Shown piece by piece: positions 5,848 to 50,491 of a stretch of DNA of 64,000 nucleotides. The DNA lies in assembly GCF_030611305.1 (NCBI RefSeq), contig NZ_JAUWQB010000007.1, positions 76-64,075 on the forward strand, read 5' to 3'. Each line of letters starts with the position of its first letter. Positions within the stretch are counted from its first letter, which is position 1. A program made the position numbers and the translations under genes. Source of the stretch: Desulfobacula sp. Its GTDB lineage: Bacteria; Desulfobacterota; Desulfobacteria; Desulfobacterales; Desulfobacteraceae. The notes under the pieces are model-generated. The model was not told the DNA's origin, did not search any database, and worked only from the letters and a program-made list of their open reading frames with translations.

Positions 5848-5978
5848 AGGAGAAGCCGGAAAAATCAGCACTGGCAAAAAATATTGCCTTTCGTGTGCCC
5901 GAAAGACCCTTCTTCGTATGCCATACAATAGTTCTAAGAAAAAACAGGAGGTGGGTTTGCGGTAAAAGCTTTAATTAT

Positions 5979-6866
5979 TTAAGCTTTCAAAGTTTTTATT
6001 TTCTCATCTTTTTTTTGCCATAAAGCATTCAGCCAAATACAAAATCGGTCTTTATACTCGGGATCATTAAAATAATCCCCGGTCAGAGAATCCGTTAAGG
6101 GGATGACTTCAAAGTCAATAATGATTCTGTTGACCTGGCCTGAAATATATTGCCAGAACGTGGGGATTTTATCCGGATACACAATAGTGACATCAATGAT
6201 TTTATTAAGATAGTCACCCATGGAACTTAAGACAAAGGCGATTCCACCTGCTTTCGGGATCAGAAGATGATTGAAATGATTGTTTTGGGACTTGTTTTTA
6301 TGCTGTGTGAACCTTGTCCCCTCGACAAAATTCATGATGGAGACCGGGGTATGTTTAAATTTTTCACATGCTTTTTTTGTGCTGGCAAGATCTTTATTCT
6401 TTAGATGGGGTTTTTCTTTTAATTGTTTTTTTGAATATCGTTTCATAAAAGGAAAATCCAATGCCCACCAGGCAAGCCCTAAGAACGGAACCCAGATCAA
6501 TTCTTTCTTTAAGAAAAATTTTAACAGGGGAATTTTTTGGTTTAATGTTGTCTGCAAGGCTAAAATATCCACCCAGGATTGATGGTTGGAAATAATCAGA
6601 TACCATTCCTTTTTTTCTAATTTTTCAAGCCCTCTGATATCCCATTCTATTTTGCAAAATAGTTTTGAGTTGAATGAATTAACCCCTATCCAGAGAGTGG
6701 CAATGGATATCAGGATTTTGTCAAGAACAACAACAACAGAGGGAACCGGGATAAGAAACTTGAAAAAAGAGATCAGAATTAATGGAATGGTCAGCAGGAT
6801 GGTATTCAACGTGTATAATAATATCGATAAAACACCTTTGAGTGAGTATGGTAGAAAATATAACAT
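5979..6866 (-). CDS. PlsC/YihG-type lysophospholipid (1-acyl-sn-glycerol-3-phosphate) acyltransferase
   Basis: N-terminal TM segments; HX4D acyltransferase motif NHQSWVDILAL; FVEGTR motif block. Confidence 0.75.
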   Translation of the reverse strand: MLYFLPYSLKGVLSILLYTLNTILLTIPLILISFFKFLIPVPSVVVVLDKILISIATLWIGVNSFNSKLFCKIEWDIRGLEKLEKKEWYLIISNHQSWVDILALQTTLNQKIPLLKFFLKKELIWVPFLGLAWWALDFPFMKRYSKKQLKEKPHLKNKDLASTKKACEKFKHTPVSIMNFVEGTRFTQHKNKSQNNHFNHLLIPKAGGIAFVLSSMGDYLNKIIDVTIVYPDKIPTFWQYISGQVNRIIIDFEVIPLTDSLTGDYFNDPEYKDRFCIWLNALWQKKDEKIKTLKA

Positions 6867-8623: not shown

Positions 8624-9560
8624 ATGATTAGAAGAATACTGAATTCAAGACTTCCTTTAATGGTTTATAATCCTGTAAAGGTATTTGATGTAAAGTATTT
8701 TAAAGAAATTTTCAACGCTGGCGCTCTTCCGGTATTTGATACGGAATGTTTAACCCATGAGGATATACTTCAAAACGCCTTGTTGCTTTCCAAAGAAAAA
8801 TTTAGCTTTGGTATCAGGCTTTCAGCCCATGATAGTGAGCTGATCAGGAAAATCAAACACCAGCAGATGATCAATCTTGATCTTTTAATTTCCCCACTTT
8901 CAAAAGATGATGCCCTCGCAGATTTCACAAATTTTGCAGATACAAAAATAGTGATAGAAATCAAAGATATTAATATTAACGATAAAATCAAAGAGGTTTC
9001 ACCCCATGCTTTGATCCTGAAAGGGAATGAAGCAGGCGGAAAGGTTTCAAAATATTCTTCTTTTGTTTTGATGCAATGGTATTTGAAAAACTATGAATTG
9101 CCGATATTCATCCATGGCGGTGTCGGAAAATATACCGCTGCCGGTATGTTTGCAGCAGGGGTATCCGGTCTTGTCATGGACAGTCAGTTTCTCATGACAG
9201 ACGAAGCCCCGGTATCGGATAACTTTAAAAAGCTCTTGGCGATGGTGGATGAGAGTGATTCCACCGAGATCACATATAAGACTCTGGACAGTTACCGGGT
9301 GTTTGCAAAACTTGGTACTAAAATTGTTAAAGACCTGAAACAGCAGGCAATTGAATTTAGTGATGATCCAAATGGCAGACAAAAGATTTATGACTCCATC
9401 GTGGATAATATGACAGCCTTTGACAAAGAGGATACCCAGTTTATCCAGTCTCTTTTTTACCTGGGCCAGGACGGCGTATTTGCAAAGGATTTTGTAAAGG
9501 AGTCAACAAGCCTTCATGAAATTATTTCAAGTTTTTTCAAAACCATTGGCGAGAATTTAA
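8624..9560 (+). other. domain: degenerate FMN/NPD (FabK/PfaD-type enoyl reductase-like) TIM barrel, copy 1 (approximate bounds)
   Basis: ALILKGNEAGGKVS appears where active homologs have EAGGH; GALPVFDTE. Confidence 0.5.
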
Positions 9561-18500: not shown

Positions 18501-19762
18501 GATTTGGAAACGAAGGTCAGGTGGATTATACATCTGCCAATGATTTTCTTGGGAAGACTTTGTTTCGTCAGAAACAGCTTCACCCTGAAAGAACTTACAA
18601 AGTCTATGCCTGGACTGCCTGGGGTGGTGTTGGCATGGCAACCAATCCAACCGTGAAAAAAGTGCTGGAGGACAGAGGCATCCAGTTCCTTCCAAAGGAA
18701 CAGGGCGTTAAGTTTTTCATGGCAGATCTCTTAGATAAAACAGACTCTGAAATGGTATTTTCCGGCCTTGATTATTCATTTGACAGGGACGGTCTCTTGG
18801 AAGATCCCGGAGATATTCAATTTCCATTTCTCGATACTCCGGTGGAGAAGACCGATACCGGTATGACGTATTCACGGATACTGGATGTTGAAAGGGATGT
18901 CTTCCTCCATGACCATACCATGGAAGAAGTGCCGCTTTTTCTTGGTGCAACCGGGATTGAAACTATGGCTGAACTCGCTGGTTCACTGTCCGAAGATAAA
19001 GGGCATTTTGTTGAATTGACGAATTTTCAGATTCCCTACGCCATCAAACTCTTAAAGGGGCGGCCAAAGGAGCTTCTGGTTTCAGGAGACAGGAGAAAAG
19101 GTGGGTTGTTTAACTGCAGGATAACATCCCAGTTCAAGAATCCCGACGGCCTTGTCATGGGAGACCCAAAGCTTCACTATGAAGGAAAATACAGGTTTGC
19201 CCGAAAACCATTAAAGGCAAAAAAGATCAAACTGCCGGAATTTAACCCGGTTTCTCATGAAGGTGATCTTGAAACCCTGGTATATGACCCCAAGCGGCTG
19301 TTCATGTTCGGCCTTTTCGCTACCATCACGGATATTAACTCCTTTGACGGTAAAACACTGGTCACAACAGTGGAGGATAAAAGCAAAAAAGAGTTTTTTA
19401 AAGGGGTGAAAGATCCCAATTTTGTAGCAGCCCCCATCCTGGTTGATGCCATGTTCCAGACCGGCGGCCTTCTTGAGTTCTTTACCACCTCAAGGACAGT
19501 TTTGCCCTATAAAATCAAGTCTTTGAAATTTTACAGAGATGTCGAGAAGAACCAAGAATACTTTTGTATTACCGAAAAGGTTGCCTCAGGTGAAGAAACC
19601 AATACCTACAACCTGAAACTGGTTGATAAAAAAGGAAATATTTTTGTTGAGGTGGACAGCTTTGAAATGGTAAAACTCAACCGCCTTGATCCCGAAGACA
19701 GAATTGTTGATTTGGTTGAGTTTGCTTTTTCTAACGAAAAGGAAAATTCAAAGGTCAACTAA
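8624..19762 (+). CDS. single-polypeptide PUFA-synthase-like iterative type I FAS/PKS (ER-ER-KS-KS*-AT-KS-ACP-ACP-KR-DH), 3712 aa
   Basis: Uninterrupted 11.1-kb ORF behind RBS GGAGA. The domain motifs are listed in the sub-features below. Confidence 0.9.
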   Translation: MIRRILNSRLPLMVYNPVKVFDVKYFKEIFNAGALPVFDTECLTHEDILQNALLLSKEKFSFGIRLSAHDSELIRKIKHQQMINLDLLISPLSKDDALADFTNFADTKIVIEIKDININDKIKEVSPHALILKGNEAGGKVSKYSSFVLMQWYLKNYELPIFIHGGVGKYTAAGMFAAGVSGLVMDSQFLMTDEAPVSDNFKKLLAMVDESDSTEITYKTLDSYRVFAKLGTKIVKDLKQQAIEFSDDPNGRQKIYDSIVDNMTAFDKEDTQFIQSLFYLGQDGVFAKDFVKESTSLHEIISSFFKTIGENLNFIDVYDPVTPGSPFAKDQGTKFPLIQGPMANISDNSDFANKVLEQGALPFFAVGSLPEQLADDMLKDGAQKVDVFGAGLVGMEAFNPAVKKHLEMVKEYKVPYALFAGGIPSQVAELEKAGTKTYLHTPSVSMMENALKNGCKRFIFEGGEAGGHVGTLSSMVLWEDAIATLINKNYDLTDLYLVFAGGISTCFASFFISGLTSFLAAKGAKIGIQVGTAYLFADEIVATKSIKSQYQEIIIRENETVVIGKSLGLASRTAPTEFARRMLEDEVLMMKNKGNFDDIKRSFEKRNIGSLLIGAKGFIPDFKNPGPENYTWFEDKEHREKGNFLVGDSLAFFDRSVTIKEIHDKYFEAKSTLYTNINFLEIFSSSKNKINDEIAVVGIGCTLPDADDPDSLWENILNKKYSISQIPKSRFDHDLYYDPDKSAEDKTYTTLAGHIDQFEFEWERFGYAQGKEKRLSRSQKMVLQTAYKAVENAGFLGEDNRLLCDDPARTAVIIATCLSNELGNDLQLKYWYPELVSMMEKTDEYQTLSDNEKEEVKQALMEGIEGENKGYDPVHGMLLNIEASRIARHLGIRGANYVVDAACASSVTALDAATDELLSGEHDQVIVGGVNTNLTPEAFIGFAKMGTLSQVGSFPFDERADGFILGEGSVVFVLKRMKDAIRDKNRILGVINSIGSSSDGKGKAIAAPNPKGQVLSVQRCFENIRPGISPEDIGFIEAHGTSTTIGDQVELETLNSIYKNANAGISSIKSQIGHLLGCAGSAGLLKALLTINKGILPPNGRFETLSKNHDLKGSSLFIVKEPKEWKSEGNTSRKAAVSSYGFGGINYHIVVEQMTENYQAISRNIFIDPSYDFNDDRIVVAGLGVFLPGAKNTEEFWDKLESGQKQLSHIPAVHFDNDAYANLDKNSTYRLPKVKAGMVKEHKFNNLKYRMPPMMVKSIERGQIFGLEAANEALESSGLLDQLSAGNKVGVILGTISGERQSKNIIRVRKQFIGNIIKNCQKLDAKKRNKVSDALVESIRNTIPENNEDTTPGLLSNIISGRIANYFGLNGANYVIDASCASSSIAIRNAARNLKQKDLDFVLAGGVDCNLYPAVLMAFKRLGLLSEGDCNFYDSRADGYVMGEGAAIHLMTTYKKAREYNMEILGEINECAVRSSVPDHLLAPSEQTFVSTINETYYKSGIRKQDINHLDLFAFSNIFGDIVEKQVIEHCFDHEMHCGNIKSQFGYFKAANPAVAMAKLMLMNRKGKILPDFNYNPEHSILNDCKILKPARQMVVKPKGQPFRFAANVNGIGGNHCHMIMSTLPARLERKEEVVEVEFKAAAGDDIVLIDHAYSADNMGKKLRMVALLSGQGAQRSRMMKELFKKDAHIRKVMEKGEQIFIEQRGYSLLDMMFGTDDAINSTQNTQAAVFLSSAAIYSRLSREGFSPDYFIGHSVGEYTALFCSGMLSFGDAMRLIIKRSDLMHEATLKVPGKIMVVFKNEKETEHLIRKAFVSNIYITNKNSEKQTAVSGKAEDIEKFCTFLTQQEIFYKKLNLTGAFHTPLLKETSVKLRAYLDTITFNDTRFGKIISNTTARPYPERHEDVKDLLARQIISPVEFITSIENVYVSGRTHFIEIGPSRLLVNLLKNINIGEYGTAVSVDAKVGEVKSFEECRKYLQDCNSIFEAKPVRVSEPGIIPDMKEELSKIEMSEDFESFKQNNQGLVDQILYKEYQHQKRQSAIDAVERYDFNTNKILISGVSVGLPGKARRVFATDNFDAILNGENFIDSLTVEDQEKIIDKNITKLYKQPDGNARFVQITKAEDVIHLAGQLGYFDLNDEYGIKEQYDISMALGIAAGIEALKDANIPLVMQYKKMKDGKTMIPDGFALPEEMQEDTGVIITSLWPNGETMMSEFEKYFYEKMFLKPYEEFEKIYYYLMEKIKDLSIKEQLTEWFFKAKSRKRSDFGPYKFDRNFLANACPLGSAHLAQIIKAKGPNTLVSSACASTTLAIGIAEDWIRVGRCKRVLVVGGENATSPSQNQWVGSGFLALGAATIKKRVSEAAKPFDEDRNGTILGSGAVGLVVESESCAKKRGMNGQCEILGTHIANSAFHTYNIDVPHMSHEMEKFINKVEKQNGIKKEDYADKLLFMSHETYTPARGGSADAEVTVLETTFADHLDSICISNTKGFTGHTLGAAIEDVVLVKALQKRKAPPIANLQKIPEHFKKLSFSGQEKINSEYGLHLAAGFGSHFAFMFVKRVEENPVEGNVRYQNWIKQITGSEDPELKIIDNTLCAVAGGEALLSLTKETRKVEKPAKVAIPAMLAAPAPVAAVKETPVKVETKPVEETTGGASEGVPAFETVKSIIAEQTGYAADMLENDLDLEADLGIDTVKQVEIFAKIASHFAFSVPDDLKLRDLNTIAKLAEYIVTRVDMPGTETSIPTPVAAQPETQSAPGAQVPSNAIDKVKEVIAEQTGYAADMLENDLDLEADLGIDTVKQVEIFAKIASHFAFSVPDDLKLRDLNTIAKLAEYIQSRAGVVQAPQTEEAADVENDEVPMASDISIPLNKDDEFPDPVSPIKRLIVRVRESQIPELSKKDFKGKKIIVSLDSHGFAKKIIEKIKKKKGEVITIGGKGADFKFDLTDVKATEKRVEEFKEAYPEVNGFIHLAPLDTYFDKKDGKGDSDDSLNTTIKSFFVMIKALFETLDQKENIIGTITFDSVVFPYMEDCGDIHPMFAGLAGLLKTVNKEMPDTTVKVVDFSYKQPKKSIGRIADIFLNELLCDDTRVEVGYKNKKRYVLSMKPSIADKTQQIISENDTLLVTGGAGGITYEIIKKVVENYKVNLIILDINDIYSTDPKYLDKVSTQADLMGILRDDMPGVKPVEIKRALDRLMRVRQSLENIETLESLGVSVEYNCVDVTDFKAVKAAVNKYDRIDGIFHAAGMEMSQFIAKKELWSFELVVDVKVKGMRNLLRAFKDREYKYFFTFSSVTARFGNEGQVDYTSANDFLGKTLFRQKQLHPERTYKVYAWTAWGGVGMATNPTVKKVLEDRGIQFLPKEQGVKFFMADLLDKTDSEMVFSGLDYSFDRDGLLEDPGDIQFPFLDTPVEKTDTGMTYSRILDVERDVFLHDHTMEEVPLFLGATGIETMAELAGSLSEDKGHFVELTNFQIPYAIKLLKGRPKELLVSGDRRKGGLFNCRITSQFKNPDGLVMGDPKLHYEGKYRFARKPLKAKKIKLPEFNPVSHEGDLETLVYDPKRLFMFGLFATITDINSFDGKTLVTTVEDKSKKEFFKGVKDPNFVAAPILVDAMFQTGGLLEFFTTSRTVLPYKIKSLKFYRDVEKNQEYFCITEKVASGEETNTYNLKLVDKKGNIFVEVDSFEMVKLNRLDPEDRIVDLVEFAFSNEKENSKVN
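9600..10640 (+). other. domain: PfaD/FabK-type enoyl reductase (NPD family), copy 2 (approximate bounds)
   Basis: FPLIQGPMANISD..GALPFFAVG; FIFEGGEAGGHVGTLSS. Confidence 0.7.
10703..12085 (+). other. domain: ketosynthase KS1 (C-H-H complete)
   Basis: IAVVGIGCTLPDA; DAACASS (Cys codon 11330-11332); EAHGTSTTIGD; KSQIGHLLGCAG. Confidence 0.85.
12155..13495 (+). other. domain: KS-like / chain-length-factor-like (Cys kept, both His lost)
   Basis: IVVAGLGVFLPGA; DASCASS (Cys codon 12761-12763). LFAFSNIFGD appears instead of xAHGTxT, and KSQFGYFKAA instead of KxxxGH. Confidence 0.7.
13616..14470 (+). other. domain: acyltransferase (AT)
   Basis: LLSGQGAQ; GHSVGEY (Ser codon 13886-13888); AFHTPLL. 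Confidence 0.85.
14785..16305 (+). other. domain: ketosynthase KS3 with enlarged N-terminal half
   Basis: ILISGVSVGLPG; SSACAST (Cys codon 15533-15535); SHETYTP; NTKGFTGHTLGAA. Confidence 0.75.
16619..16806 (+). repeat. ACP-encoding direct repeat, copy 1 (188 nt)
   Basis: Near-identical to 16934-17121, with a handful of mismatches by eye and a period of 315 nt. It encodes ..LEADLGIDTVKQVEIFAKIASHF.. Confidence 0.9.
16934..17121 (+). repeat. ACP-encoding direct repeat, copy 2 (188 nt)
   Basis: See copy 1; it encodes the same peptide. Confidence 0.9.
17330..18780 (+). other. domain: ketoreductase (KR) with structural subdomain (approximate bounds)
   Basis: LLVTGGAGGITYEI (Rossmann fold); FSSVTARFGNEGQVDYTSANDFL. 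Confidence 0.75.
18830..19700 (+). other. domain: PKS-type dehydratase (double hotdog) (approximate bounds)
   Basis: FLHDHTMEEVPLFLGATG resembles LxxHxxxGxxxxP. Confidence 0.65.
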
Positions 19763-23730: not shown

Positions 23731-23961
23731 ATGAAGACCAGCGGGAAAATTATGAAATCTGACGATTCCAGTGTTTCACACCCAGAGAAGAAAAAAAAAT
23801 GTCCTTTTATCGGATCTCCATACAAGGACTGCTATTTTCTCGATATGAGCAGCAACAAGATCGCAATGGCGCTTTTCTATTGCCATAATCATTATACGCA
23901 ATGCGCAATTTATAAAAAGATGAAAACAAAAAAATCTACACAAAAGGATTTGAAGATATGA
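23731..23961 (+). CDS. small Cys-containing protein of unknown function
   Basis: 76-aa ORF with four Cys (CPFIGSPYKDC ... CHNHYTQC). Its stop overlaps the Rieske gene start (ATGA). Confidence 0.4.
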   Translation: MKTSGKIMKSDDSSVSHPEKKKKCPFIGSPYKDCYFLDMSSNKIAMALFYCHNHYTQCAIYKKMKTKKSTQKDLKI

Positions 23962-24413
23962 GCCGAAGAAAATTTTTAAAAACCGCTATTCTCACAGGCT
24001 GCACAGCCTTGGTCACGGGAATTCCGCTGGCTACTTACGTCATCTTACCGTCTTTGAAACAAGAACCTGGTAACTGGATTGATTTTGGATCTGTTGAAGA
24101 TTTGGAACCGGACAATTTTAATATGCTTTCCTATGAGTTCATGGTGAAAGATGGTTGGATAACCCTTCCCCAGAGAGGTTTTGTGTGGGCAAAGGCCGAA
24201 GCAAAACAACAGATTAAAATATTTTCATCAACCTGCTCTCATTTAGCGTGCAACGTGATCTGGCAAAAGGAAACCCGGGAATTTGTATGTCCTTGCCATT
24301 CCGGCCGGTTCGATGCACAAGGACAGCCCATTGCAGGTCCGCCGTCCCGCCCTTTAACTGTTTTGGAACATAAAGTTGCAGACGGCAATTTAATGGTCTT
24401 TATGAAAGTGTAA
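23958..24413 (+). CDS. Rieske [2Fe-2S] protein with Tat signal
   Basis: Twin-arginine signal SRRKFLKTA; cluster boxes CSHLAC and CPCHSGRF. Confidence 0.9.
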   Translation: MSRRKFLKTAILTGCTALVTGIPLATYVILPSLKQEPGNWIDFGSVEDLEPDNFNMLSYEFMVKDGWITLPQRGFVWAKAEAKQQIKIFSSTCSHLACNVIWQKETREFVCPCHSGRFDAQGQPIAGPPSRPLTVLEHKVADGNLMVFMKV

Positions 24414-24445
24414 TATTAACCCGTAATAATAGGAGAACATGAATT

Positions 24446-25432
24446 ATGCGTACTAAATTTGTTATCAGTTTGAGTGTGTGCCTGGCACTTTTTATCGGCA
24501 CACTGCATTTCACTGCCCAGGAAGCCATGGGGGCTTCCAAGCAAGTGCTCATTGCCGCAAAAGTGAAGTCTGCACCGGCAGGATTGGATGATGCCGCCTG
24601 GGGAAAAGCCAGGGGGATCGACGTCCCCTTTGAAGGTAAGGAAGTGTTTGCAGGCCAACATACCAGTGTGGCCACTAAGGCAGTTTATACGAAGGACAAT
24701 ATTTTTTTCCTTTATCAATGGAAAGATGCAAACCAAAGTATCACCAAGGGTGCCTGGCAGTATAAAGATGAAAATTGGATCCACCAAAAAGGTAACGAGG
24801 ATCGGATTTCAATGTTGTTCGAGATTAACCGGATCAACAATTTCGCCACCAAGGGATGTGCAATAGTCTGTCATGTTCCCGACGGTGCAACAAATGCCAA
24901 GGATGGAAAATTTGGTACCCTGACAACTGCTGAAAAAGGTGATTTGTGGCATTGGAAAGCTGCTCGGTCTGATCCGGCAGGCTATGCCGACGATACCTGG
25001 TTGACAAAGATCAGTGAGAAAAAAGGCGGCCGAAAGGGAGATAAAGGAAGCGGCGGTGACAAGAAAAATATAACGGAGGATAAATCCAAACCAAAATATA
25101 TGCTGGCCCAGGGTAAATCTTTGGTCAAAAACGGAATTTTGCTTGCGTCCCACGCCGTGGAGATTACGGATTACTCTGTTTTCAAGGATGGAGATACCAT
25201 TACCTATCGTATGCCTAAAATACCGACAGGCTCTTTTGCTGACATAAAAGCTGATAGCCGTTACGTCAACGGAGAATGGACCGTCATGCTGTCTAGAAAA
25301 CTTGATACCGGAAATCCGGATGATACCGCCTTTAATCCAAAAAGAAAATACAATTTTGCCATGGCGCTTTTTGATAACTCCGGTGATGAAGATTCTTATG
25401 ATTCTGAAGTCATCACCCTTAAATTTAAATAA
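24446..25432 (+). CDS. secreted EB_dh-like (ethylbenzene dehydrogenase gamma / cytochrome c-552-like) heme-binding domain protein, copy 1
   Basis: Signal peptide; GDLWHWKAARSDP and FAMALFDNSGDE blocks typical of this family as I recall it; CAIVCH (CX3CH). Confidence 0.6.
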   Translation: MRTKFVISLSVCLALFIGTLHFTAQEAMGASKQVLIAAKVKSAPAGLDDAAWGKARGIDVPFEGKEVFAGQHTSVATKAVYTKDNIFFLYQWKDANQSITKGAWQYKDENWIHQKGNEDRISMLFEINRINNFATKGCAIVCHVPDGATNAKDGKFGTLTTAEKGDLWHWKAARSDPAGYADDTWLTKISEKKGGRKGDKGSGGDKKNITEDKSKPKYMLAQGKSLVKNGILLASHAVEITDYSVFKDGDTITYRMPKIPTGSFADIKADSRYVNGEWTVMLSRKLDTGNPDDTAFNPKRKYNFAMALFDNSGDEDSYDSEVITLKFK

Positions 25433-25446
25433 TAGATATTTTCAAG

Positions 25447-26538
25447 GTGGAACCGGTGAATAATATACCCATGAAAACCCGATCTTTAAAACTGCTTGAA
25501 TTTTTATCTCTGGAAAAGAGTGCCGACAGGCTGCTCGCCCTTGAGGTCCCGAAGGATGCCCTTTCATGGACCCGTTTTTGTGGTGCCCTGCTCCTTGTGT
25601 TGGTTGTATTGCTGTTTTTGTCGGGAATCTTCATGGCCTTTTATTACTCACCGATTCCTGGAACAGCCTATGACAGTGTAGATTTTGCCCTGTTTAATGT
25701 TCCCTTTGGCAGCGTTGTAAAAGGCGTTCATCATTATTCCTGGAATCTTTTGCTCATGGTCATGGGTGTCCATCTTGGTCGATCCTTGATCCTCGGCAGT
25801 TACAAGGCACCCAGACAGATGGTCTGGGTCACGGGTGTGATAATTTTGCTATTCGTGCCCTTGTTTATCATTACCGGAGATCTTTTGCCTTGGGATCAGA
25901 AGGGATACTGGTCAACCCAGGTTCGTTTAAGTATCATTTCATCAGTCCCGGGTATGGGTCATATTGCCGCTCGACTTCTTCAGGGCGGTTCTCTGACCGG
26001 CGTTGTGGCCTTGACCCGGTTTTATGTACTCCACATCCTGATGCTGCCCGGGCTGCTTGTCTTGCTTATAGCGGTTCATTTTCATTTCATCCGTCATCGT
26101 GGATTATCAGAACCGCTGGGCGCAGACCCGGTCTCCCGGCCCAGGATTCCTTTTTATCCGAATGTGGTGAATCGCTGGCTGTTTTTGTTCATTATGGTTT
26201 CTATCATTCTGGGAGTCATCAGTTGGCATTGGATACCACCTTTTGGTGATCCGGCCGATCCAACAGATTCTTCATATATACCCAAACCAGAGTGGTGGGT
26301 CCTGTTTTTGAATCAGCTCGTATCTGTCTTTAAAGGCGGTTTGGCCGTGTTGGGGTCAACAATAATTCCTGCAGGACTGGCAGGGCTGTTGATATGTTTG
26401 CCATTCATAGATCGTTCCCCCCATCGGCATCCGGCCCGCCGGTGGAAAATTCTTTTGCCTGCCGCCGCGATAGTGATTGCCATCCTCACGCTTTCTATAA
26501 TGGGATACATGGAACACTTTGTCCTGGTTGAGAATTAA
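25447..26538 (+). CDS. cytochrome b (bc1/b6f-type, N- and C-terminal parts fused)
   Basis: Multi-TM protein. His pairs occur in GVHHYSWNLLLMVMGVHLGR and YVLHILMLPGLLVLLIAVHFHF. PEWWVLF sits at the PEWY (Qo) position. Start is GTG 25447 or ATG 25471. Confidence 0.85.
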   Translation: MEPVNNIPMKTRSLKLLEFLSLEKSADRLLALEVPKDALSWTRFCGALLLVLVVLLFLSGIFMAFYYSPIPGTAYDSVDFALFNVPFGSVVKGVHHYSWNLLLMVMGVHLGRSLILGSYKAPRQMVWVTGVIILLFVPLFIITGDLLPWDQKGYWSTQVRLSIISSVPGMGHIAARLLQGGSLTGVVALTRFYVLHILMLPGLLVLLIAVHFHFIRHRGLSEPLGADPVSRPRIPFYPNVVNRWLFLFIMVSIILGVISWHWIPPFGDPADPTDSSYIPKPEWWVLFLNQLVSVFKGGLAVLGSTIIPAGLAGLLICLPFIDRSPHRHPARRWKILLPAAAIVIAILTLSIMGYMEHFVLVEN

Positions 26539-26633
26539 TATGTTCAACGCTTGCCAGGACAAGACCGGATAAGCTCGGAGTAATTCAAGATTTATGAAGT
26601 TGTTAAGATATATAATTTTAATAAAGGTGTATC

Positions 26634-27635
26634 ATGCGTAAAGACAAACAACTATTTACGGTTTTTGCCGTTGTATCGCTTCTATTTTTTATGTGGACCG
26701 GGAAAAGCGTTTGCCTGGCCGCAGACATATTTATCATAAGGGCTGAACACCTTCAGCAGGCCCCGAAAGGATTGAAAGATCCGATTTGGAATCAAATCTC
26801 GTCTATACCTGTTTCCGTTCAGGGAAGAGATGTTCTGTCCGAATCAAAAAGCATCGTATCCACACAGTCAGCTTATACGGATGAATTTATTTATTTTAAA
26901 TTAAAATGGAAGGATCCCACCAGAAGTGTCGTTAAGCAATCCTGGAAATTTGACGGAGTCAACTGGCATCACCAGGAAGGAAATGAAGACCGGATAGCCC
27001 TTCTTTTTGAAACTACCCGGATCAACAAATTTGCAACACGGGGGTGCGCGGTGACATGTCACAGCCCTCCGGATGTCCCTAAAAAAGACTGGAAATTTAC
27101 CACCAGGACCAGTGCTGAAAAAGGCGATTTGTGGCACTGGAAATCTGCCCGGTCCGCCCCTTATCAATATGCAGATGATGCCTGGCTGACCATTGCCGGC
27201 AATCCAACCGGATCATACCGTGAAACCGGCAGGAGAAAAGATGCCGGAAAAGGTGGAGACATTAAAAATCATACTCAGGACGAATCAAAACCGATTTACA
27301 TGCAAGATCCAACTAAAAAGCAGACTGTGCCCGGATTTCTCCTGAAGGAAGAAGCAATAAAAATAAATGACTATTCGATTTTCAAGGCTGGAGATATTAT
27401 TCCTTTCCGGCTGCCTGTAAAACCTGGCGGTTCGCGGTTTGATGTTAAAGCCGAAAGTCAATGGGCAGATGGTCACTGGACGGTCATGCTTTCCAGAAAA
27501 CTGGATACCGGCCATGGGGATGATGTAAGTTTTAATCCCTTGAAAAGGTATAGTTTTGCCATGGCCTTGTTTGATGATTCAGGAGATGATCATTCAAAGG
27601 CAACCAGACCGATGATATTAATCTTCGACCATTAA
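26634..27635 (+). CDS. secreted EB_dh-like heme-binding domain protein, copy 2 (paralog of 24446..25432)
   Basis: Signal peptide; GDLWHWKSARSAP; FAMALFDDSGDD; CAVTCH (CX3CH). Confidence 0.6.
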   Translation: MRKDKQLFTVFAVVSLLFFMWTGKSVCLAADIFIIRAEHLQQAPKGLKDPIWNQISSIPVSVQGRDVLSESKSIVSTQSAYTDEFIYFKLKWKDPTRSVVKQSWKFDGVNWHHQEGNEDRIALLFETTRINKFATRGCAVTCHSPPDVPKKDWKFTTRTSAEKGDLWHWKSARSAPYQYADDAWLTIAGNPTGSYRETGRRKDAGKGGDIKNHTQDESKPIYMQDPTKKQTVPGFLLKEEAIKINDYSIFKAGDIIPFRLPVKPGGSRFDVKAESQWADGHWTVMLSRKLDTGHGDDVSFNPLKRYSFAMALFDDSGDDHSKATRPMILIFDH

Positions 27636-34704: not shown

Positions 34705-34764
34705 TCCTTTTTTACAAAACAAAAAATACTTGACGGTTGACGTAACTTGTCATATCATAAAGTC

Positions 34765-35049
34765 ATGATAAAGACGTTTAAATGTAAAGACACCGAAAAG
34801 CTTTTTAATGATTTAGAGGTAAAAAAATTTAGAAGCATTTATAGAACAGCACGAATAAAACTTGAGGTGCTAAATGCTGCTGTATCATTAAACAGTTTAC
34901 GAGTTCCGCCAGGAAACAGGCTTGAACAATTAAAAGGAAATAGAAAAGGTCAACATAGCATCAGAATCAATAATCAGTGGCGCATTTGTTTTATCTGGAA
35001 AGGAGAAAGCGTTAATGCGGTAGAAATTGTTGATTACCATAAGGGGTGA
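34765..35049 (+). CDS. higB: cassette 9a: HigB toxin (plasmid maintenance system killer, RelE/ParE superfamily)
   Basis: MIKTFKCKDTEKLFND...PPGNRLEQLKGNRKGQHSIRINNQWRICF is the classic HigB pattern. Start is ATG 34765 (the ORF track starts at TTG 34747). Confidence 0.8.
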   Translation: MIKTFKCKDTEKLFNDLEVKKFRSIYRTARIKLEVLNAAVSLNSLRVPPGNRLEQLKGNRKGQHSIRINNQWRICFIWKGESVNAVEIVDYHKG

Positions 35050-35053
35050 AATC

Positions 35054-35380
35054 ATGACAAAAACATTATCTCCAATCACACCGGGTGATATTCTTTTAGA
35101 AGAATTTCTTAAGCCAATGAACATCACTCAAAACCAATTATCAAAAGATATTTGCGTACCTGCAAATCGTGTTAGCCAAGTGGTTCATGGTAAAAGAGAA
35201 ATCACCGCTGACACTGCACTTAGGCTCGGTAAATATTTTGGTATAGAACCAGAATTTTGGCTTAACCTGCAAGTGCGATACAATATGAAAATTGCTCGAA
35301 AGAAGATAGGAAAAAAGATTGAAAAAGAAGTCAAAGTCTATTTTTCTCAAACTGAAAGACTTAACCATGCAAGTGGATGA
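35054..35380 (+). CDS. higA: cassette 9b: HigA antitoxin (XRE-type HTH)
   Basis: ITPGDILLEEFLKPMNITQNQLSKDICVPANRVSQVVHGKREITADTALRLGKYFG. ATG 35054 follows AAGGGG. Confidence 0.8.
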   Translation: MTKTLSPITPGDILLEEFLKPMNITQNQLSKDICVPANRVSQVVHGKREITADTALRLGKYFGIEPEFWLNLQVRYNMKIARKKIGKKIEKEVKVYFSQTERLNHASG

Positions 35381-37282: not shown

Positions 37283-37507
37283 AATCATTTCCTTTGTCAC
37301 AAACGGGCTGTGCAAGTTAATGCCATTCCATGCGACATTTTTTTTGCTTCCGCACCAACATAGATGATTCCCCATGCAAGTCAAGCAAAAAAGGGATGAC
37401 CCCAAGGTGATTGCAGGTAAATTATAAAATTTTGCCAATAAGACCGGACTTGGTTAAAAATCTATACAGCAACTTTTTTTATTTGACAAAAAAGATTCAT
37501 ATGTTAC

Positions 37508-37529
37508 TATTCAATTAATCGCTTGAATA
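37508..37529. promoter_or_regulatory. inverted repeat, candidate ArsR-family operator
   Basis: TATTCAA-N8-TTGAATA (perfect 7-bp arms) ends 19 nt upstream of the ArsR-rhodanese start. Confidence 0.4.
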
Positions 37530-37547: not shown

Positions 37548-38213
37548 ATGAACCCGAACAGACGATTTAAAGATGAAATATATGATCAATTTTCACGGAT
37601 TGGCAAAGCGGTTTCAAGCCCCAAACGACTTGAGCTTTTAGATATCCTTTGCCAGGGAGAAAGAACGGTTGAAAACCTTGCAAATGAAACCTCCCTTACC
37701 ATTGCCAATACGTCTCAACACCTTCAGGTATTAAAAAATTCCCGACTAGTTGAACAGGAAAAAAAGGGATTGTATGTGGTCTACCGGCCTGCGCCCATGG
37801 TCTGCGAATTCTTTTTATCCATGCGCAAGGTTGCTGAGAATCGGATTGCAGAAATTGAACAGATTAAAAACCGCTTTCTTGAAGGGAAAAAAGGAATGGA
37901 ATCGATTGACCGGGATGCATTGATAAAACGCATACAAAAAGAAGAGGTCACCATACTGGATGTCCGCCCGCCGGAAGAATTCAGGGCAGGTCATATTAAA
38001 GGAGCCGTGTCCGTTCCCTTGAAGGAACTTGGACTCATGCTGACAAAACTTCCTAAAAATAAAGAAATTGTTGCTTACTGTCGGGGACCTTATTGTGTCC
38101 TTTCTGTTGAGGCAGTCCAGTTGTTAAACGAGAAAGGATATCATGCAGTACGTCTTGAAGAAGGTGTCCAGGACTGGCGTGCCATGGGACTGCCTGTGGC
38201 CTCAGGTGAATAA
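37548..38213 (+). CDS. ArsR/SmtB-family HTH regulator fused to a rhodanese domain
   Basis: KRLELLDILCQGERTVENLANETSLTIANTSQHLQVLK (ArsR HTH). The rhodanese part has the loop IVAYCRGPYCVLS. Confidence 0.85.
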   Translation: MNPNRRFKDEIYDQFSRIGKAVSSPKRLELLDILCQGERTVENLANETSLTIANTSQHLQVLKNSRLVEQEKKGLYVVYRPAPMVCEFFLSMRKVAENRIAEIEQIKNRFLEGKKGMESIDRDALIKRIQKEEVTILDVRPPEEFRAGHIKGAVSVPLKELGLMLTKLPKNKEIVAYCRGPYCVLSVEAVQLLNEKGYHAVRLEEGVQDWRAMGLPVASGE

Positions 38214-38231: not shown

Positions 38232-39989
38232 TTGAAGACAATTAAAAAAAACTTCACTGCATTGATTGTAATCTTTCTTACAATCAGTGCGTTGTGGTTT
38301 ACCAACCGGGCGGTTACTCTCCAGGATGCATCCTGGGAGGATGTAGTAGCAGAATCAAAGGCCGGTGGGTATAACCTTATAAAAACAGATGAGCTTTGGG
38401 AAAAATACCAGAAAGATCCGGACAACCTTCTCTTTGTTGATACCCGCCAGGAATGGGAATTTCGAACAGGACATATCAAACAGGCCGTCAATTTTCCCAT
38501 GGAGCCAACCTGGCTTTCCCGATGGCAGAAAAAAACTTCTCTTGAAAAGTTTTTAGGGCCGGATAAAGACCGGACCATTGTTTTTTACTGAGCCGGCCTG
38601 GCATGAGTCCGAAGCGACTCGGCAGCCCGTGTGGCTGTAAAACTTGGTTACACAAATATTTATCGTGATCCTCTAGGCTATCCTGAATGGCAGGCAAAAG
38701 GATTTCCTGTAAACAGCACTCCAGCCGGAACAGCTGGTATAGCCCAAATCGGAGAGGTTTCAAACTCTTCCGGAGACAATGCCTATGGTCAACTACACGG
38801 CTGGGCCATGACCTGGACGCTTCTGGGTATTTTTGTCGGTGGTATGGCCCTGAACCTTACTCCATGCGTATATCCCCTCATCCCGGTCACCATATCCTAT
38901 TTTAGCGGCAGGAGCGGTAAAGGACAGACTATTGCCCACGGCTTATGCTATGTGGGCGGAATCGCCTTTACAAATTCATTACTGGGAGTGTTTGCCGCCT
39001 TGACAGGCGGCTTGATGGGAGCAATTCTCCAGCATCCCCTGGTACTGATGATTATCGCAGTTCTTTTAATTTCTCTTTCTTTCAGCCTGTTCGGGTTCTG
39101 GGAATTACGGGTTCCTTATGGGCTTATGCAGGCAGCAACAAAATCACATGCAGGATTTTTAGGCTCTTTATTTATGGGACTCATGATGGGGGTCGTTGCA
39201 GCCCCTTGTATCGGTCCGTTTGTCCTGGGTTTGCTCACCTGGGTAGCCAGCATGGGTAGTCCCTGGCTGGGGTTTATCATTTTCTTTACCTTAAGTTTAG
39301 GATTGGGTCTGCCAATTTTTTTCCTGGCCATATTTTCGGGTAATATCAGTAGGCTTCCCCGGTCGGGTGAATGGATGCTATGGGTCAGAAAACTCATGGG
39401 TTGGGTCTTGATGGGTATGGCTGTCTATTTTATCCAGCCGCTTTTTCCCAAAACCATCGGAATTTTTGTTATGGCAGGGGTGGCTCTTTTGGCAGGGCTT
39501 CACCTGGGCTGGGTCGACAAAACAAAGGCAGCGTTTAAATCCTTTGAATGGATTAAAATGACTGTAGCCATGGCGGCATTCGTATTCATGACCATTCTTG
39601 TGGGAAGCTTTATCACCCAGGGGCCTGGAGTAAGTTTTAATTCCTATGATAAAAATCTGCTGGTACAGGCAAAAAATGAGGGAAAACTTGTGATTATAGA
39701 TTTTTTCGCAGAATGGTGCAGCCCCTGTCGGGAACTTGATGATATTACTTTTCATGACGACAGAGTGGTGGAGCCGATAGCAAAGGATTTTATTCTGATC
39801 AAGGTGGACCTGACCCTCAAAGGTAATCCAATCCATGAGAAACTACTAAATGAATATCATATTAAAGGGGTTCCAACTATTGTGTTCCTGGACAGGAAAG
39901 GCCAGGAAATCAAAGAACTTCGTCTGGTAGATTTTGAACCCCCGGAACTATTTCTGGAAAGGTTAAACAAGGCAAAACAGATACAATAA
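38232..39989 (+). CDS. selenoprotein: membrane-anchored rhodanese (U-x4-U) fused to a DsbD/CcdA-type transmembrane domain and a C-terminal thioredoxin; in-frame UGA at 38589-38591 and 38604-38606
   Basis: ORFs 38232..38591 and 38631..39989 are in the same frame. The read-through gives TIVFY-U-AGLA-U-VRSDSAARVAVKLGYTNIYRDPLGYPEWQAKGFPV, completing one rhodanese fold. Downstream come TPCVYPLIP and AAPCIGPF (DsbD beta-type Cys) and FFAEWCSPC (Trx). Confidence 0.75.
38604..38621 (+). promoter_or_regulatory. candidate SECIS-type hairpin
   Basis: UGAGUC-CGAAGC-GACUCG: a 6-bp stem (one G-U pair) with a hexaloop, starting 12 nt after the first UGA and including the second UGA. Confidence 0.35.
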
Positions 39990-40009
39990 AAATATTTAAG
40001 GAGGCAATT

Positions 40010-40327
40010 ATGTTAAAAGTGAGTTTTTTTTTAAACGAGCCCAATGGGAAGCCATGAAAGCACTTCAAAAAAATCATGCCCAGGCTGGGCAAAATATATG
40101 ATATAGAGATCGAAGTCATATCCAAACCCAAAGCCGAATACAATACAGATGAATACTTTGAACTGGATCTGCCCCTGGCCCCTGCAGTCATGGTGGGCGA
40201 TGAAATCGTGACGGAAGGGGCAGATGTGCCCCAGTATGATATAGAGGCGACTATTTGCAGACATCTGAACTTGCCGTTTCCGGAAAAAAAAGAAAAGGGG
40301 CTTTTAGGAAAAGTATTCAAAAAATAA
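40010..40327 (+). CDS. small thioredoxin-fold selenoprotein (in-frame UGA at 40055-40057)
   Basis: A strong RBS AAGGAGG (39998-40004) lies 5 nt before ATG 40010. The frame reads MLKVSFFLNEPNGKP-U-KHFKKIMPRLGKIYDIEIEVIS.. and runs into ORF 40076..40327, which has no RBS of its own. U sits at the beta1-loop-alpha1 redox position. Confidence 0.7.
40078..40090 (+). promoter_or_regulatory. candidate SECIS-type hairpin (apical part)
   Basis: GCCCA-GGC-UGGGC lies 20 nt downstream of the UGA. ATCAT (40073-40077) and ATGAT (40098-40102) could extend the stem. Confidence 0.3.
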
Positions 40328-46777: not shown

Positions 46778-47986
46778 TTATATTATCAGCGATTCTGATG
46801 CCAGGGATGCCACGGTATCAACCTTGATTCCCAGCTTATAATGATTGGAAAGTTCACTCAATTGCCTGTGGCAGGACAGACAGGCCGTGGCAAGATTGGG
46901 CAGGCCGGTTGCCTTCATCTGGTCTGCCTTGGGCTTTCCTGTAATCATCCTTTTGTTCTTGCTGGTGCTGTCCTGCAGGATACCGCCGCCGCCGCCGCAG
47001 CAGACGCCGTCTTCCCTGTTAGGTATCAGTTCCACAACCCCTTTGCAGACCATGGAAAGCAGTTCTCTTGGGGCATCATATCCCCCGGATTTCCTGGCAA
47101 TATTACAGGGATCATGGTAAGCGATTTTATAGGGATGTACTTCAGGATCAAATTTCAGGATTCCTTTTTTGGCATATCGAACAATGAGTTCAGGCATGCT
47201 GATCACTTCAAACCCGGGTTTTCTTCCAATGATATCTTCCAGGAGGTATTTTAAAGCATGATATCCATGGCCGCATTCTGAAAGTACAAGGGTTTCAACG
47301 CCGAGTTCTTCGGCCGGTTCCACCACCATCAGAACCATTTTTTTTGCAATATCATCCTTGCCCACAAAATATCCCCAGTTGGTCACATCGGTATGATGGG
47401 CTGACAGGGTCCAGGTTTCTTTTGTGGCATAAAAGAGTTTTGCCATGGCGGTTAAATGAAGCAGGTTAATACCAAGCTCCCTTGGATTGGGAAGGTAGAG
47501 AAGTTTTGTTCCTTTTATATCATGGGGAATCTGGGCATTCGGGTCATCCACCTCATCAACAAATTCTTCGCTGACCCATTCAACGGTTTCAACAAACTCC
47601 TCTTTGGTCAGGGCATTGACATCTCCCAGCTCAATGCGATTTTTAATGCCTATCTTGATATCTTTTGGGATATTGTCATCTGCAATGGCGAGGCTTCTTG
47701 CTTTCCTGACAACCTTGTCCATGGAGATACCCATGGGGCATCCCTGTGTACACCGGTTGCACAAAAGGCAATCCCATAGCATATTGCTGTTCACAAGCTG
47801 TTCATCAAGCCCCAGGGCTGCCATGCGGATAATCTGGCGGGGTAAGGGCCCGCCTTCCCCGTCAAACCATGTACATCTTGAGTTGCAGGCTCCGCAGGTC
47901 AGGCATTCAGAAATATTGTCCCCCAGCTCAAACTGGTTCAACATTTTATACAAAGCCGAAGTTTTATTTATTGTTGCAGTATTCAT
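46778..47986 (-). CDS. HdrD/DsrK-like Fe-S oxidoreductase (2x[4Fe-4S] + CCG domains)
   Basis: CLTCGACNSRC, CLLCNRCTQGCP, DPCNIARK, CCGGGGG. Confidence 0.8.
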   Translation of the reverse strand: MNTATINKTSALYKMLNQFELGDNISECLTCGACNSRCTWFDGEGGPLPRQIIRMAALGLDEQLVNSNMLWDCLLCNRCTQGCPMGISMDKVVRKARSLAIADDNIPKDIKIGIKNRIELGDVNALTKEEFVETVEWVSEEFVDEVDDPNAQIPHDIKGTKLLYLPNPRELGINLLHLTAMAKLFYATKETWTLSAHHTDVTNWGYFVGKDDIAKKMVLMVVEPAEELGVETLVLSECGHGYHALKYLLEDIIGRKPGFEVISMPELIVRYAKKGILKFDPEVHPYKIAYHDPCNIARKSGGYDAPRELLSMVCKGVVELIPNREDGVCCGGGGGILQDSTSKNKRMITGKPKADQMKATGLPNLATACLSCHRQLSELSNHYKLGIKVDTVASLASESLII

Positions 47987-48004
47987 ATTTATTTTCCTTT
48001 ATCT

Positions 48005-50491
48005 TCATACCTTGGAAATAATGCGCTCAAATTTTTTGGTTTCATTAGCTGCGACAGGTTCCCACACCACTTTTGAGGCATCCATTCCAGGAATACTTAA
48101 CACTTGTCTCACACTTGCATCGGCAACATTGCTGCCTTCAAGGGATCTACAGTTTTCTTCGTGGCAACCTGTGACAATCACTTTTGATGCGCCGTTTAAA
48201 AGGGCTTTAAGAATCACGTCGCTGCTGATCCTGCAGGCACAGGGAATGGATATCAAAGTGATGTTGTCCGGCAGCGTAAGGCTGCCTGCTGCAAGGGCTG
48301 CTGACCGTTCACAGGCCAGAATGGTCACCTTGTCTTTTTCAATTTTTTGGGCAATCTGATCATTGGTAAGCGTTTTTGATTCAATGGCATATGCCGGGCA
48401 GCTGGACACACAAAGGTGGCACGAAAAGCAGGAATCCGGTACAATCTGTGGTCTGTTTTTTTCGTTCATGACAATGGCTGCGTGCGGGCAGACCCGGATA
48501 CAGGTCAGACACTGGGCACATTTTTTCTGATTGATTTCAACCCCGGTATCAATCTCGGGTAAATCAAAAGACTCGGTTGAAAAGCCGGATAAAATATCAT
48601 TGATTTCATCGTTCAGATCATCCTGGTCGGTCTCATCATGACAGGTCCCGGCAAAAAAGATGCCTTTTCGAGGGGATCTGGTCAGACGGTGACGGATGTT
48701 GGCAGATTGTAAAAAGCCTTCACTGTCAAGGGGCTGGCGCAAGAGTGCGGCAGCATCTTTAAATCCTGCCGCCGGTGTCAGGCTCGGCGGCAGAACAAGG
48801 CAGTCACAATTGAGATTCAGTTCAATGGATGGCAGTGTAGCCTCTTTGAGTTTAATCAGAAATCCAGTACCTGAATTCTCAAATTTTAAATCTTCACTGG
48901 TCTCAAACCTGAAAAAATCGACCCCCTGCTGCCTTGCAGTATCATAGAGGCGCTGTCCCAACGCACCGTGAACCAGCATCTTATTCATGATAATGGAAAT
49001 GTTTTTCCCCAAAGCCTTTGCTTTGATAGAAATTTCCAGGGCAAGGCGTGCAAAAGATTTAAACTCAGGACCAAAATAATCCAGCAGGATGACACTATTA
49101 CCCGGACAGGTGTCAGGCGTTTTTTCAATCATTTGAGAGAATGCATCAAGGCTTAAGGAAGCATTTGTGAGGCTGTCCAGCCTGTTCAATGATTGTTTTG
49201 GTTCAAATGCAGCAATAATGGCCGCACAGGCCAGATATTTTTTTTCATTTCCTGATTCATAATAGAGTGAAAAGTTGCCGGCAGTACCGCTGACAGAAAT
49301 GATGTTGCTCTCATCTAAAATAGTGACAGGAGCATCCTTTGAAAGGCTTGTCCCCGGTCCGAACAGATAGGTGGAATAACCTTTTGAAGAGATGACCATA
49401 GCTGTCTGATCTGCCTGGACACTTTGTCCAAATACGGCTATGTTCAATTCCTTTTTTGTATTCAATCCAAGATCTTCAATGACTTTGGCCGCTGCAACCC
49501 TGCCGTCCTGTTTGGAAGAAAGGATATCTTTGGGACCATTGGCACAGCCTGCAATAATTACGTCCTTAGACAGAACCGCCTGATCCGTATTGAAAAATCC
49601 CCATGAATTGGGTTTCAGATCAAGCATGCCGGCAGTTGCCTCAAGGGTCTGGGCGGGCTGCATGCCGACAGAGAGAACGATAAGATCAAAGGCTTTGGAA
49701 ACCCTGGCTTGGGTTAGTTTATCTTCTGCCACGATGGTCAGCATATTCGTCTGATTGTCCTCAAGGATCTCGGCAGGAACTCCCTGAACCAGGGCAATAT
49801 TTTTGGAAAGCGTGTTGAACAGGGGTCTTACCTCTTTCCCAATGACCTGAAGATCCATGTGAAAGAGTGTGATGTCGGACTCAGGGTAAAGATGGGTAAG
49901 CTTGTTAGCATGGCGCATGGATATCTTGCAGCATACCTGGGAACAAAAATCTCTGCCCTGCTCACGGTTTCGTGAACCCACACACTGGATAAAGGCAATT
50001 TTAGGATCAGGCTTCCCATTAAAATACCCGGAAAGCCTTTCCTCTCGCAGTATGGCGTTCAACTCAGCCGAGGTGATCACGTTTTTATACTCATCATAGT
50101 GAAGGGAATTTATCTGGCCAGGGTTAAAGGGGGAAAATCCTGTGGCCATGATAATTTTTTTTACGCGGAACGTCTCTTTATTTTCCAAGACTACCTCATA
50201 CCCTTGCTTTTCCTTATTAATGGTTTCAACAATGGTATTGAGGTGTAAAATAATATTTTTCTGTTTTCCGATCTGATCTGCCATTTCAATACTGAGGCAG
50301 GCACCGCAGTTTTCACAGGTGTCGGTTGCCATACAGGCCCACATGGCGGCATGCCCGCCAAGGGCGCTTTCTTTTTCCATCAGGTGTACGGCAACATTCT
50401 GATCAGCAAAGGTTTGCGCCGCAGCCATTCCTGCAACGCCTCCCCCTATAATCAGGATATTTGGGGTTGTTTTTTTCATATATTCCTCCAA
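48005..50491 (-). CDS. HdrA-like FAD/Fe-S oxidoreductase fused to an MvhD domain
   Basis: ILIIGGGVAGMAAA (FAD). Ferredoxin motifs CAQCLTCIRVCP and CFSCHLCVSSCP. C-terminal ILACERSA..IPCACRISSDVILKALLNGASKVIVTGCHEENC (MvhD-type). Confidence 0.85.
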   Translation of the reverse strand: MEEYMKKTTPNILIIGGGVAGMAAAQTFADQNVAVHLMEKESALGGHAAMWACMATDTCENCGACLSIEMADQIGKQKNIILHLNTIVETINKEKQGYEVVLENKETFRVKKIIMATGFSPFNPGQINSLHYDEYKNVITSAELNAILREERLSGYFNGKPDPKIAFIQCVGSRNREQGRDFCSQVCCKISMRHANKLTHLYPESDITLFHMDLQVIGKEVRPLFNTLSKNIALVQGVPAEILEDNQTNMLTIVAEDKLTQARVSKAFDLIVLSVGMQPAQTLEATAGMLDLKPNSWGFFNTDQAVLSKDVIIAGCANGPKDILSSKQDGRVAAAKVIEDLGLNTKKELNIAVFGQSVQADQTAMVISSKGYSTYLFGPGTSLSKDAPVTILDESNIISVSGTAGNFSLYYESGNEKKYLACAAIIAAFEPKQSLNRLDSLTNASLSLDAFSQMIEKTPDTCPGNSVILLDYFGPEFKSFARLALEISIKAKALGKNISIIMNKMLVHGALGQRLYDTARQQGVDFFRFETSEDLKFENSGTGFLIKLKEATLPSIELNLNCDCLVLPPSLTPAAGFKDAAALLRQPLDSEGFLQSANIRHRLTRSPRKGIFFAGTCHDETDQDDLNDEINDILSGFSTESFDLPEIDTGVEINQKKCAQCLTCIRVCPHAAIVMNEKNRPQIVPDSCFSCHLCVSSCPAYAIESKTLTNDQIAQKIEKDKVTILACERSAALAAGSLTLPDNITLISIPCACRISSDVILKALLNGASKVIVTGCHEENCRSLEGSNVADASVRQVLSIPGMDASKVVWEPVAANETKKFERIISKV

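Follow-up and report, generated by a model that had tools for sequence, protein, structure and literature searches.

TsoB of a Desulfobacula species: a membrane protein with two predicted selenocysteines in its rhodanese loop, encoded in a two-selenoprotein variant of the Tso operon

Introduction

A 2026 review (PMC13188914) describes a "three selenoprotein operon", Tso, with the gene order TsoR-TsoA-TsoB-TsoC, and lists TsoB as a family with a UxxxxU motif and two selenocysteines (Sec), crediting it to Haft & Tolstoy 2025 (mSystems 10:e0141724). Here we analyse a member of that family in a 64,000-nucleotide stretch of DNA from Desulfobacula sp. (assembly GCF_030611305.1, contig NZ_JAUWQB010000007.1, positions 76 to 64,075), which we call the window and the positions of which are used throughout. 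Two open reading frames (ORFs) annotated at 38232-38591 and 38631-39989 are, in our reading, parts of one gene, tsoB (38232-39989), coding for a membrane selenoprotein with two predicted Sec residues, a conclusion to which we give a probability of about 0.9 on the basis of comparative sequence analysis. The next gene, tsoC, is also predicted to encode a selenoprotein, and the place of TsoR and TsoA is taken by another regulator gene.

Two other groups of proteins are related to TsoB. Rhodanese-related sulfurtransferase selenoproteins likewise carry Sec at the catalytic Cys position of a rhodanese fold. These proteins are soluble, consist of one domain and have UxxS, UxxG, CxU or UxU motifs; forms 1-4 have a single Sec, and the UxU di-Sec rhodanese of the Olavius Delta-1 symbiont, reported by Zhang & Gladyshev 2007 (PMC1976440), provides a precedent for a second Sec within the rhodanese loop. 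TsoB differs from these proteins in its U-x4-U motif, in a loop that is two residues longer, and in the fusion of the rhodanese to a DsbD electron-import module. The latter is homologous to the beta (transmembrane, with two essential Cys residues) and gamma (thioredoxin, CxxC) domains of E. coli-type DsbD (PRK00293 / NF001419), whereas the immunoglobulin-like N-terminal alpha domain of DsbD is replaced in TsoB by the two-Sec rhodanese. Finally, the criteria for a bacterial selenocysteine insertion sequence (bSECIS) comprise a loop of 3-9 nt with a G within its first two positions, a stem of 4-16 bp, a distance of 16-37 nt between UGA and loop, and a minimum free energy of -7.5 kcal/mol or lower (PMC13188914).

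Results

One reading frame through two UGA codons

The ORF at 38232-38591 (+) starts with TTG, with AAGGAAAG just before it, and ends in ...DRTIVFY-TGA. Past this TGA the frame is unbroken, reading AGLA-TGA-VRSDSAARVAVKLGY... and running on into the annotated ORF 38631-39989, which confirms the proposal of an earlier note on this DNA, made from the sequence alone, that two in-frame UGAs join these ORFs into a 585-residue protein of rhodanese, DsbD and thioredoxin parts (Table 1). With Sec entered as Cys, residues 7-581 match positions 3-571 of the 572-position model NF045694 (seleno_TsoB) and score 960.1 bits (cut-off 805). The window protein shares with TsoB the architecture of a rhodanese, a DsbD-type transmembrane domain and a thioredoxin domain, as well as the UxxxxU motif, and no difference at the protein level was found. 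On these matches it is a TsoB orthologue and a full-length member of NF045694, and the family, the motif and the operon are already known. The suggestion, made in the earlier note, that a U-x4-U rhodanese loop had not been described therefore fails, because the fusion of such a rhodanese to DsbD was published in 2025 and has been curated by NCBI as TsoB.

In Pfam, the order of domains along the protein is PF00581, PF02683 and PF13899/PF00085. When the TGAs are read through, residues 53-156 cover positions 3-102 of the 102-position rhodanese profile, and both TGAs therefore lie within the domain; moreover, the profile is complete solely across both of them, which agrees with the earlier claim that the two halves make a full rhodanese fold only together. 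The DsbD model NF001419 scores 246 bits, below its cut-off of 330, and matches at model positions 159-573 only, as expected from the proposal that the alpha domain has been replaced. A crude hydropathy profile reveals a hydrophobic N-terminal segment (residues 7-28), predicted to be a signal or an anchor, and about eight membrane segments.

Table 1. Coordinates of tsoB, its domains and candidate decoding elements, and of the adjacent features of the locus
Feature	Position	Strand	Basis
tsoB, whole read-through coding sequence, 585 aa, with predicted Sec120 and Sec125	38232..39989	+	frame continuity, Pfam domains, NF045694 match
UGA-1, predicted Sec120, canonical catalytic Cys position of rhodanese	38589..38591	+	TGA in 80/80 orthologues; alignments
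UGA-2, predicted Sec125, inside a two-residue insertion; active-site loop becomes U-x4-U-x-R	38604..38606	+	TGA in 80/80 orthologues; alignments
Rhodanese domain, residues 53-156, predicted periplasmic, holds both Sec codons	38388..38699	+	PF00581
DsbD-type transmembrane (beta) domain, residues 195-404, Cys212 and Cys326	38814..39443	+	PF02683, 134.6 bits
C-terminal thioredoxin-like (gamma) domain, residues 478-562, WCSPC (Cys496 and Cys499)	39663..39917	+	Thioredoxin_7, Thioredoxin_2, Thioredoxin
Hairpin 1, UGAGUC / loop CGAAGC / GACUCG, candidate SECIS for UGA-1	38604..38621	+	comparative folding
Hairpin 2, GCAGCC / loop CGUGU / GGCUGU, best-supported SECIS	38622..38638	+	covariation, bSECIS criteria
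tsoC, 105-aa NEPxGxxU-motif selenoprotein (predicted), UGA 40055-40057 as Sec16	40010..40327	+	NF045708, 146.3 bits (cut-off 45)
tsoC SECIS hairpin, UGCCCA-GGC-UGGGCA, 19 nt from UGA to stem	40077..40091	+	consensus fold over 56 loci
ArsR/SmtB-type helix-turn-helix and rhodanese fusion, CRGPYC (C-x4-C) loop, presumed regulator	37548..38213	+	HTH_5 and Rhodanese (Pfam)
Candidate promoter before the regulator gene, TTGACA-16-TACTAT with TG extension	37483..37510	+	consensus match 10/12

Within the protein the predicted Sec residues occupy the motif FY-U-AGLA-U-VRSD. In all four of the best PDB alignments (6mxv, 4f67, 3d1p and 6k6r) the catalytic Cys of the solved rhodanese stands opposite UGA-1 ('fyCgGg--fRS' against 'fyCaglacvRS'), which is where the earlier note had placed the first TGA. 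All four require a gap of two residues, whereby UGA-2 falls in an insertion; instead of the standard-length active-site loop (C-x4-R/T), TsoB has U-x4-U-x-R. The neighbouring gene (37548-38213), in turn, encodes a rhodanese domain that is 36% identical to that of TsoB and aligns with it without a gap (YCRGPYCVLS against YCAGLACVRS; E = 1e-15), so that this paralogue, too, has the Cys residues that had been assigned to it at both TGA positions.

Both UGA codons are conserved

A homologue search was made across 5.8 billion predicted proteins. Close homologues, at 65-88% identity, are nearly all called as proteins of 444-452 aa that cover the C-terminal 77% of the query; about 117 of the best 120 database homologues are calls of this length, all cut off at one common point. 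A further three homologues, more distant, extend over the full length and include the rhodanese domain; C212, C326, C496 and C499 do not vary among the homologues of full length. Two of the three, P0037 and P0038, read FYC-x4-CVRSD, with one Cys opposite each TGA, whereas Gly and Arg occupy these positions in the third, P0053. The latter is a TsoB relative encoded at locus L083, where, at 4358-4375, both Sec codons are replaced by sense codons, GGA (Gly) and CGA (Arg), and not by Cys codons; both of the hairpins described below are intact at this locus, and a TsoX gene is found just upstream. The rhodanese domain of P0053 may have been inactivated or repurposed recently, or the assembly may be in error.

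We then turn to 80 related loci in species-representative genomes, all from Thermodesulfobacteriota or from metagenome-assembled genomes binned near them, and including Desulfobacula, other Desulfobacterales, Syntrophobacteraceae and the Olavius Delta-1 symbiont. In 80/80 loci the two positions are TGA and the frame is intact (FYU[A/S]G[L/F]xU[V/A]RSDSAARVA), far more than chance would produce. Protein identity across these loci is as low as 58% and at most 89%. In the alignment of the orthologues, codon positions 1 and 2 are fixed between and after the TGAs and position 3 is freely variable. Moreover, the GTG at 38631, where gene callers start a 452-aa protein, encodes an internal Val and is replaced by GTA in 11 of 81 sequences. 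As judged from these alignments, the two UGAs are conserved and lie in frame, and selection acts on them at the level of the protein.

Two abutting hairpins follow the UGA codons

An ungapped alignment of 81 sequences that begins 6 nt upstream of UGA-1 and ends 81 nt downstream of it reveals two abutting hairpins that follow the UGAs. The bacterial SECIS consensus (bSECISearch model, PMC13188914) has a single hairpin, whereas tsoB has two UGAs 15 nt apart and then two short hairpins; the second agrees with the consensus in loop, stem, spacing and energy, whereas the first has UGA-2 in its own stem and misses the energy threshold when taken alone.

Hairpin 2 has the consensus GCNGCY, loop CGKGU, RGCYGU, is paired in 99.4% of cases across the alignment, and contains the annotated GTG "start" at 38631. 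The distance to the start of its loop is 21 nt from UGA-2 and 36 nt from UGA-1. With a 6-bp stem, a 5-nt loop carrying G and then U/G at loop positions 2-3, and an energy of -8.0 kcal/mol, it passes all bSECIS criteria. Two of its base pairs covary at synonymous sites: the first is GC in 41 sequences, AU in 33 and GU in 5, and the second is CG in 70 and UA in 11, with zero unpaired. The observed covariation score was reached by none of 500 shuffles, and by mutual information the two pairs rank first and second among 666 polymorphic column pairs. Since both pairs switch from AT to GC on both sides, a GC-content artefact was considered; it was rejected because the pair 45-51 is unrelated to local GC content at third codon positions (0.50 against 0.49) and because both pairs are top-ranked.

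Hairpin 1 has the consensus UGAGUC, loop CGNAGY, GACUCG, with 94% of its cells paired. It begins at UGA-2, 12 nt separating UGA-1 from its first base and 18 nt from its loop, and it satisfies every bSECIS criterion except energy. Third codon positions in its stem have a mean entropy of 0.67, against 1.30 outside the hairpins; the stem codons are GAC in 79/81 and GTC in 70/81 sequences, whereas a largely-Asp codon outside the hairpins is GAT in 41 and GAC in 26. Stacked, the two hairpins reach -14.9 kcal/mol. The earlier note had singled out UGAGUC-CGAAGC-GACUCG as the hairpin lying where bacterial SECIS elements are found; that hairpin exists and is conserved, but hairpin 2, directly 3' to it, has the better support as a SECIS. 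Sec insertion at UGA-2 most likely depends on hairpin 2 and that at UGA-1 on hairpin 1, with hairpin 2 possibly serving UGA-1 as well.

A two-selenoprotein variant of the Tso operon

Downstream of tsoB, an annotated 83-aa ORF (40076-40327) is a truncated form of tsoC. The whole gene, preceded by a Shine-Dalgarno sequence (GGAGG, 40000-40004), reads MLKVSFFLNEPNGKP-TGA-KHF..., with the motif NEPNGKP-U, and its UGA is the third predicted Sec codon of the window. The hairpin that follows is conserved and has an apical loop beginning with GG. Among the 80 loci, about 57 have a tsoC gene downstream of tsoB.

On the other side of tsoB, 18 nt separate its start from the stop codon of the presumed regulator gene, the product of which scores 63 bits with HTH_metalloreg and 31.2 bits with the TsoR model NF045707, the cut-off of which is 115. 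The promoter-like site upstream of that gene is probably the start of a regulator-tsoB-tsoC unit, and, together with the 18-nt gap, it suggests a single transcription unit. The TsoA motif L[U/C]LAxC (LULAxC or LCLAxC) was not found in any frame of the window. Across the 80 loci, TsoA is encoded about 650 nt before tsoB in some 27 (in L017 with 230.3 bits to NF045695, cut-off 170), and an ArsR-rhodanese about 507 nt before it in some 22, mainly in Desulfobacula and Desulfobacterales and including the closest relatives of the window; the two layouts almost never occur together. The full TsoR-TsoA-TsoB-TsoC set is present in L078, where TsoR scores 170.7 bits (cut-off 115), and in L017. The regions at these loci that were compared with 37548-38213 of the window are 5076-5990 (L078) and 1811-2269 (L017). 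The C-terminus of TsoA has a sub-threshold winged-helix match (20.1 against 21.9 bits), a mere hint of DNA binding.

The window thus shares with the Tso operon adjacent tsoB and tsoC genes on the same strand, each with predicted Sec, and differs from it in having two of the three selenoprotein genes and an ArsR-rhodanese in place of TsoR and TsoA. By gene content it is a two-selenoprotein variant of the Tso operon. The paralogous C-x4-C active site of the regulator suggests that it may sense the substrate of TsoB itself.

Other features of the window

A giant ORF at 8624-19762 (+), of 3,712 aa, has ketosynthase, acyltransferase, acyl carrier protein, ketoreductase and dehydratase domains and an enoyl reductase of the nitronate-monooxygenase type, and its product is predicted to be a megasynthase resembling polyunsaturated fatty acid or polyketide synthases; a sigma-54 activator and an acyltransferase are encoded just upstream on the opposite strand. 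The cluster at 23958-27635 (+), which follows the genes of a PAS histidine kinase and a sigma-54 response regulator, codes for a Rieske protein, two paralogous haem subunits of the ethylbenzene-dehydrogenase type (EB_dh) and a cytochrome b, possibly forming a membrane redox complex. At 46778-50491 (-), an 828-aa HdrA-like flavoprotein with a fused MvhD/FlpD domain adjoins a CCG/HdrD-like Fe-S protein. The HdrA/MvhD/FlpD and CCG/HdrD-like families often contain Sec in the host clade; no in-frame UGA is evident in the genes at 46778-50491. A HigB-like toxin and an HTH_3 antitoxin, with overlapping reading frames, form a type II toxin-antitoxin pair at 34747-35380 (+). Lastly, the region 456-3629 (+) contains a row of five ORFs (189-247 aa) on one strand, none of them with a Pfam match, followed by two proteins with CarboxypepD_reg/SdrD-type domains.

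Discussion

We conclude that the two annotated ORFs at 38232-39989 are a single tsoB gene and that its two UGAs are in all probability read as Sec. Several observations weigh against parts of this interpretation. There is no tRNA gene, and hence no tRNA-Sec, in the window, and no SelA, SelB or SelD domain was found by Pfam among its 43 large ORFs. Rfam, at its gathering thresholds, gave no match in the window, and the folding of 38586-38660 as a single sequence is not distinguishable from that of shuffles (z = -1.06). Hairpin 1 shows no compensatory changes among the 81 sequences, and its energy, -5.7 to -6.3 kcal/mol, is weaker than the bSECIS threshold. The hairpins are also still carried by the non-Sec relatives L081, L082 and L083, the replacement codons of which (TGC/TGT, TGT/TGC and GGA/CGA) are each one substitution away from TGA; both SECIS function and recent ancestry fit this retention. 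Lastly, the substrate and the electron path proposed below are drawn from homology only.

Hairpin 2 could act as the single SECIS for both UGAs, hairpin 1 being merely a stabilising or spacing element, and we give this arrangement a substantial chance, somewhat short of even. By its distances hairpin 2 alone satisfies the bSECIS criteria for either UGA, covariation is confined to it, and hairpin 1 falls short of the energy threshold in 79/81 loci. However, the 36 nt to UGA-1 lie at the edge of the accepted range; hairpin 1, for its part, carries a G at loop position 2, its loop size and its spacing to UGA-1 are both suitable, and the synonymous sites of its stem, with their nearly constant GAC and GTC codons, are unusually fixed. 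The fuller proposal, in which hairpin 1 serves UGA-1 and hairpin 2 serves UGA-2, and in which, in addition, the ArsR-rhodanese regulator senses the substrate of TsoB, is put forward tentatively, as being on balance rather doubtful when all of its parts are taken together.

Could the UGAs be read through without Sec being inserted, by near-cognate suppression with Trp or Cys or by means of a local recoding signal? The lack of Sec machinery within the 64-kb window would agree with such a reading, yet we consider it very improbable. The pairing of UGA with Cys at redox-active positions is the signature of Sec, the conserved hairpins fit the bSECIS geometry, the adjacent tsoC has a UGA at a Cys position together with a canonical GG-loop SECIS, and the host clade is among the richest in selenoproteins known. 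TGA, moreover, ends other genes of the window normally. Reassignment of the genetic code had also been considered; it was rejected because TGA terminates 11 of the 45 large ORFs, the others ending in TAA (27) or TAG (7).

The annotation itself, that is, a 119-aa rhodanese fragment followed by a separate 452-aa DsbD-like protein starting from the GTG at 38631, is hardly credible, even though gene callers produce just this split and the great majority of the best homologues are called in the same manner. Uniform shortening across the database is the artefact to be expected when TGA is called as a stop, whereas a complete rhodanese profile is obtained only across both TGAs, full-length homologues with Cys exist, the supposed start is an internal codon that varies to GTA, and the codon pattern between and after the TGAs is that of a continuous frame. 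A pseudogene created by two nonsense mutations, which two stops within 15 nt in a conserved domain might bring to mind, can be discounted almost entirely, since the same TGAs are found in 80/80 species-level genomes at 58-89% identity, with purifying selection on both sides, and at positions of the catalytic loop that align with Cys. Both separate genes and a pseudogene are in fact excluded by the conservation of the TGA pair, the frame and the codon pattern, and by the internal position of the GTG at 38631.

For TsoB read as one protein with a Sec pair, a mode of action may be proposed. With about eight hydrophobic segments, the N- and C-terminal domains should share one side of the membrane, and, from the homology to DsbD and the crude hydropathy profile, the rhodanese and the C-terminal thioredoxin domain would both face the periplasm. 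Sec120, at the position of the rhodanese nucleophile, would take up sulfane sulfur or a chalcogen or metalloid species, with Sec125 as the residue that resolves the adduct, giving a selenenyl-selenide, a bond that the DsbD module would recycle; these steps are speculative. As in DsbD, electrons would pass from cytoplasmic thioredoxin to Cys212/Cys326, from there to the WCSPC motif and then to the Sec pair, and would thereby reduce again the selenenyl-selenide, or the Se-S/Se-X adduct, formed on the rhodanese loop. The outcome, again speculative, would be a periplasmic activity for the reductive handling of sulfur or metalloids under the control of the ArsR-rhodanese. Both the longer loop and regulators of the ArsR/SmtB type would fit a substrate that is a metalloid or a reactive form of sulfur.

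For annotation, we recommend merging the ORFs 38232-38591 and 38631-39989 as tsoB and extending ORF 40076-40327 to the whole of tsoC. Gene callers still split tsoB, as the shortened entries among its closest 120 database relatives (about 117) testify. What may be new here, if it goes beyond Haft & Tolstoy 2025, is the decoding of UGAs 15 nt apart and the swap of the regulator. TsoB is biologically unusual in its predicted combination of an electron-importing DsbD module with a periplasmic rhodanese that bears a Sec pair. If hairpin 1 indeed serves UGA-1 and hairpin 2 serves UGA-2, SelB would be recruited twice within five codons, with the ribosome melting hairpin 1 in between. The conserved hairpin pair of tsoB offers a compact natural system in which to study how SelB and SECIS elements deal with Sec codons that lie close together.

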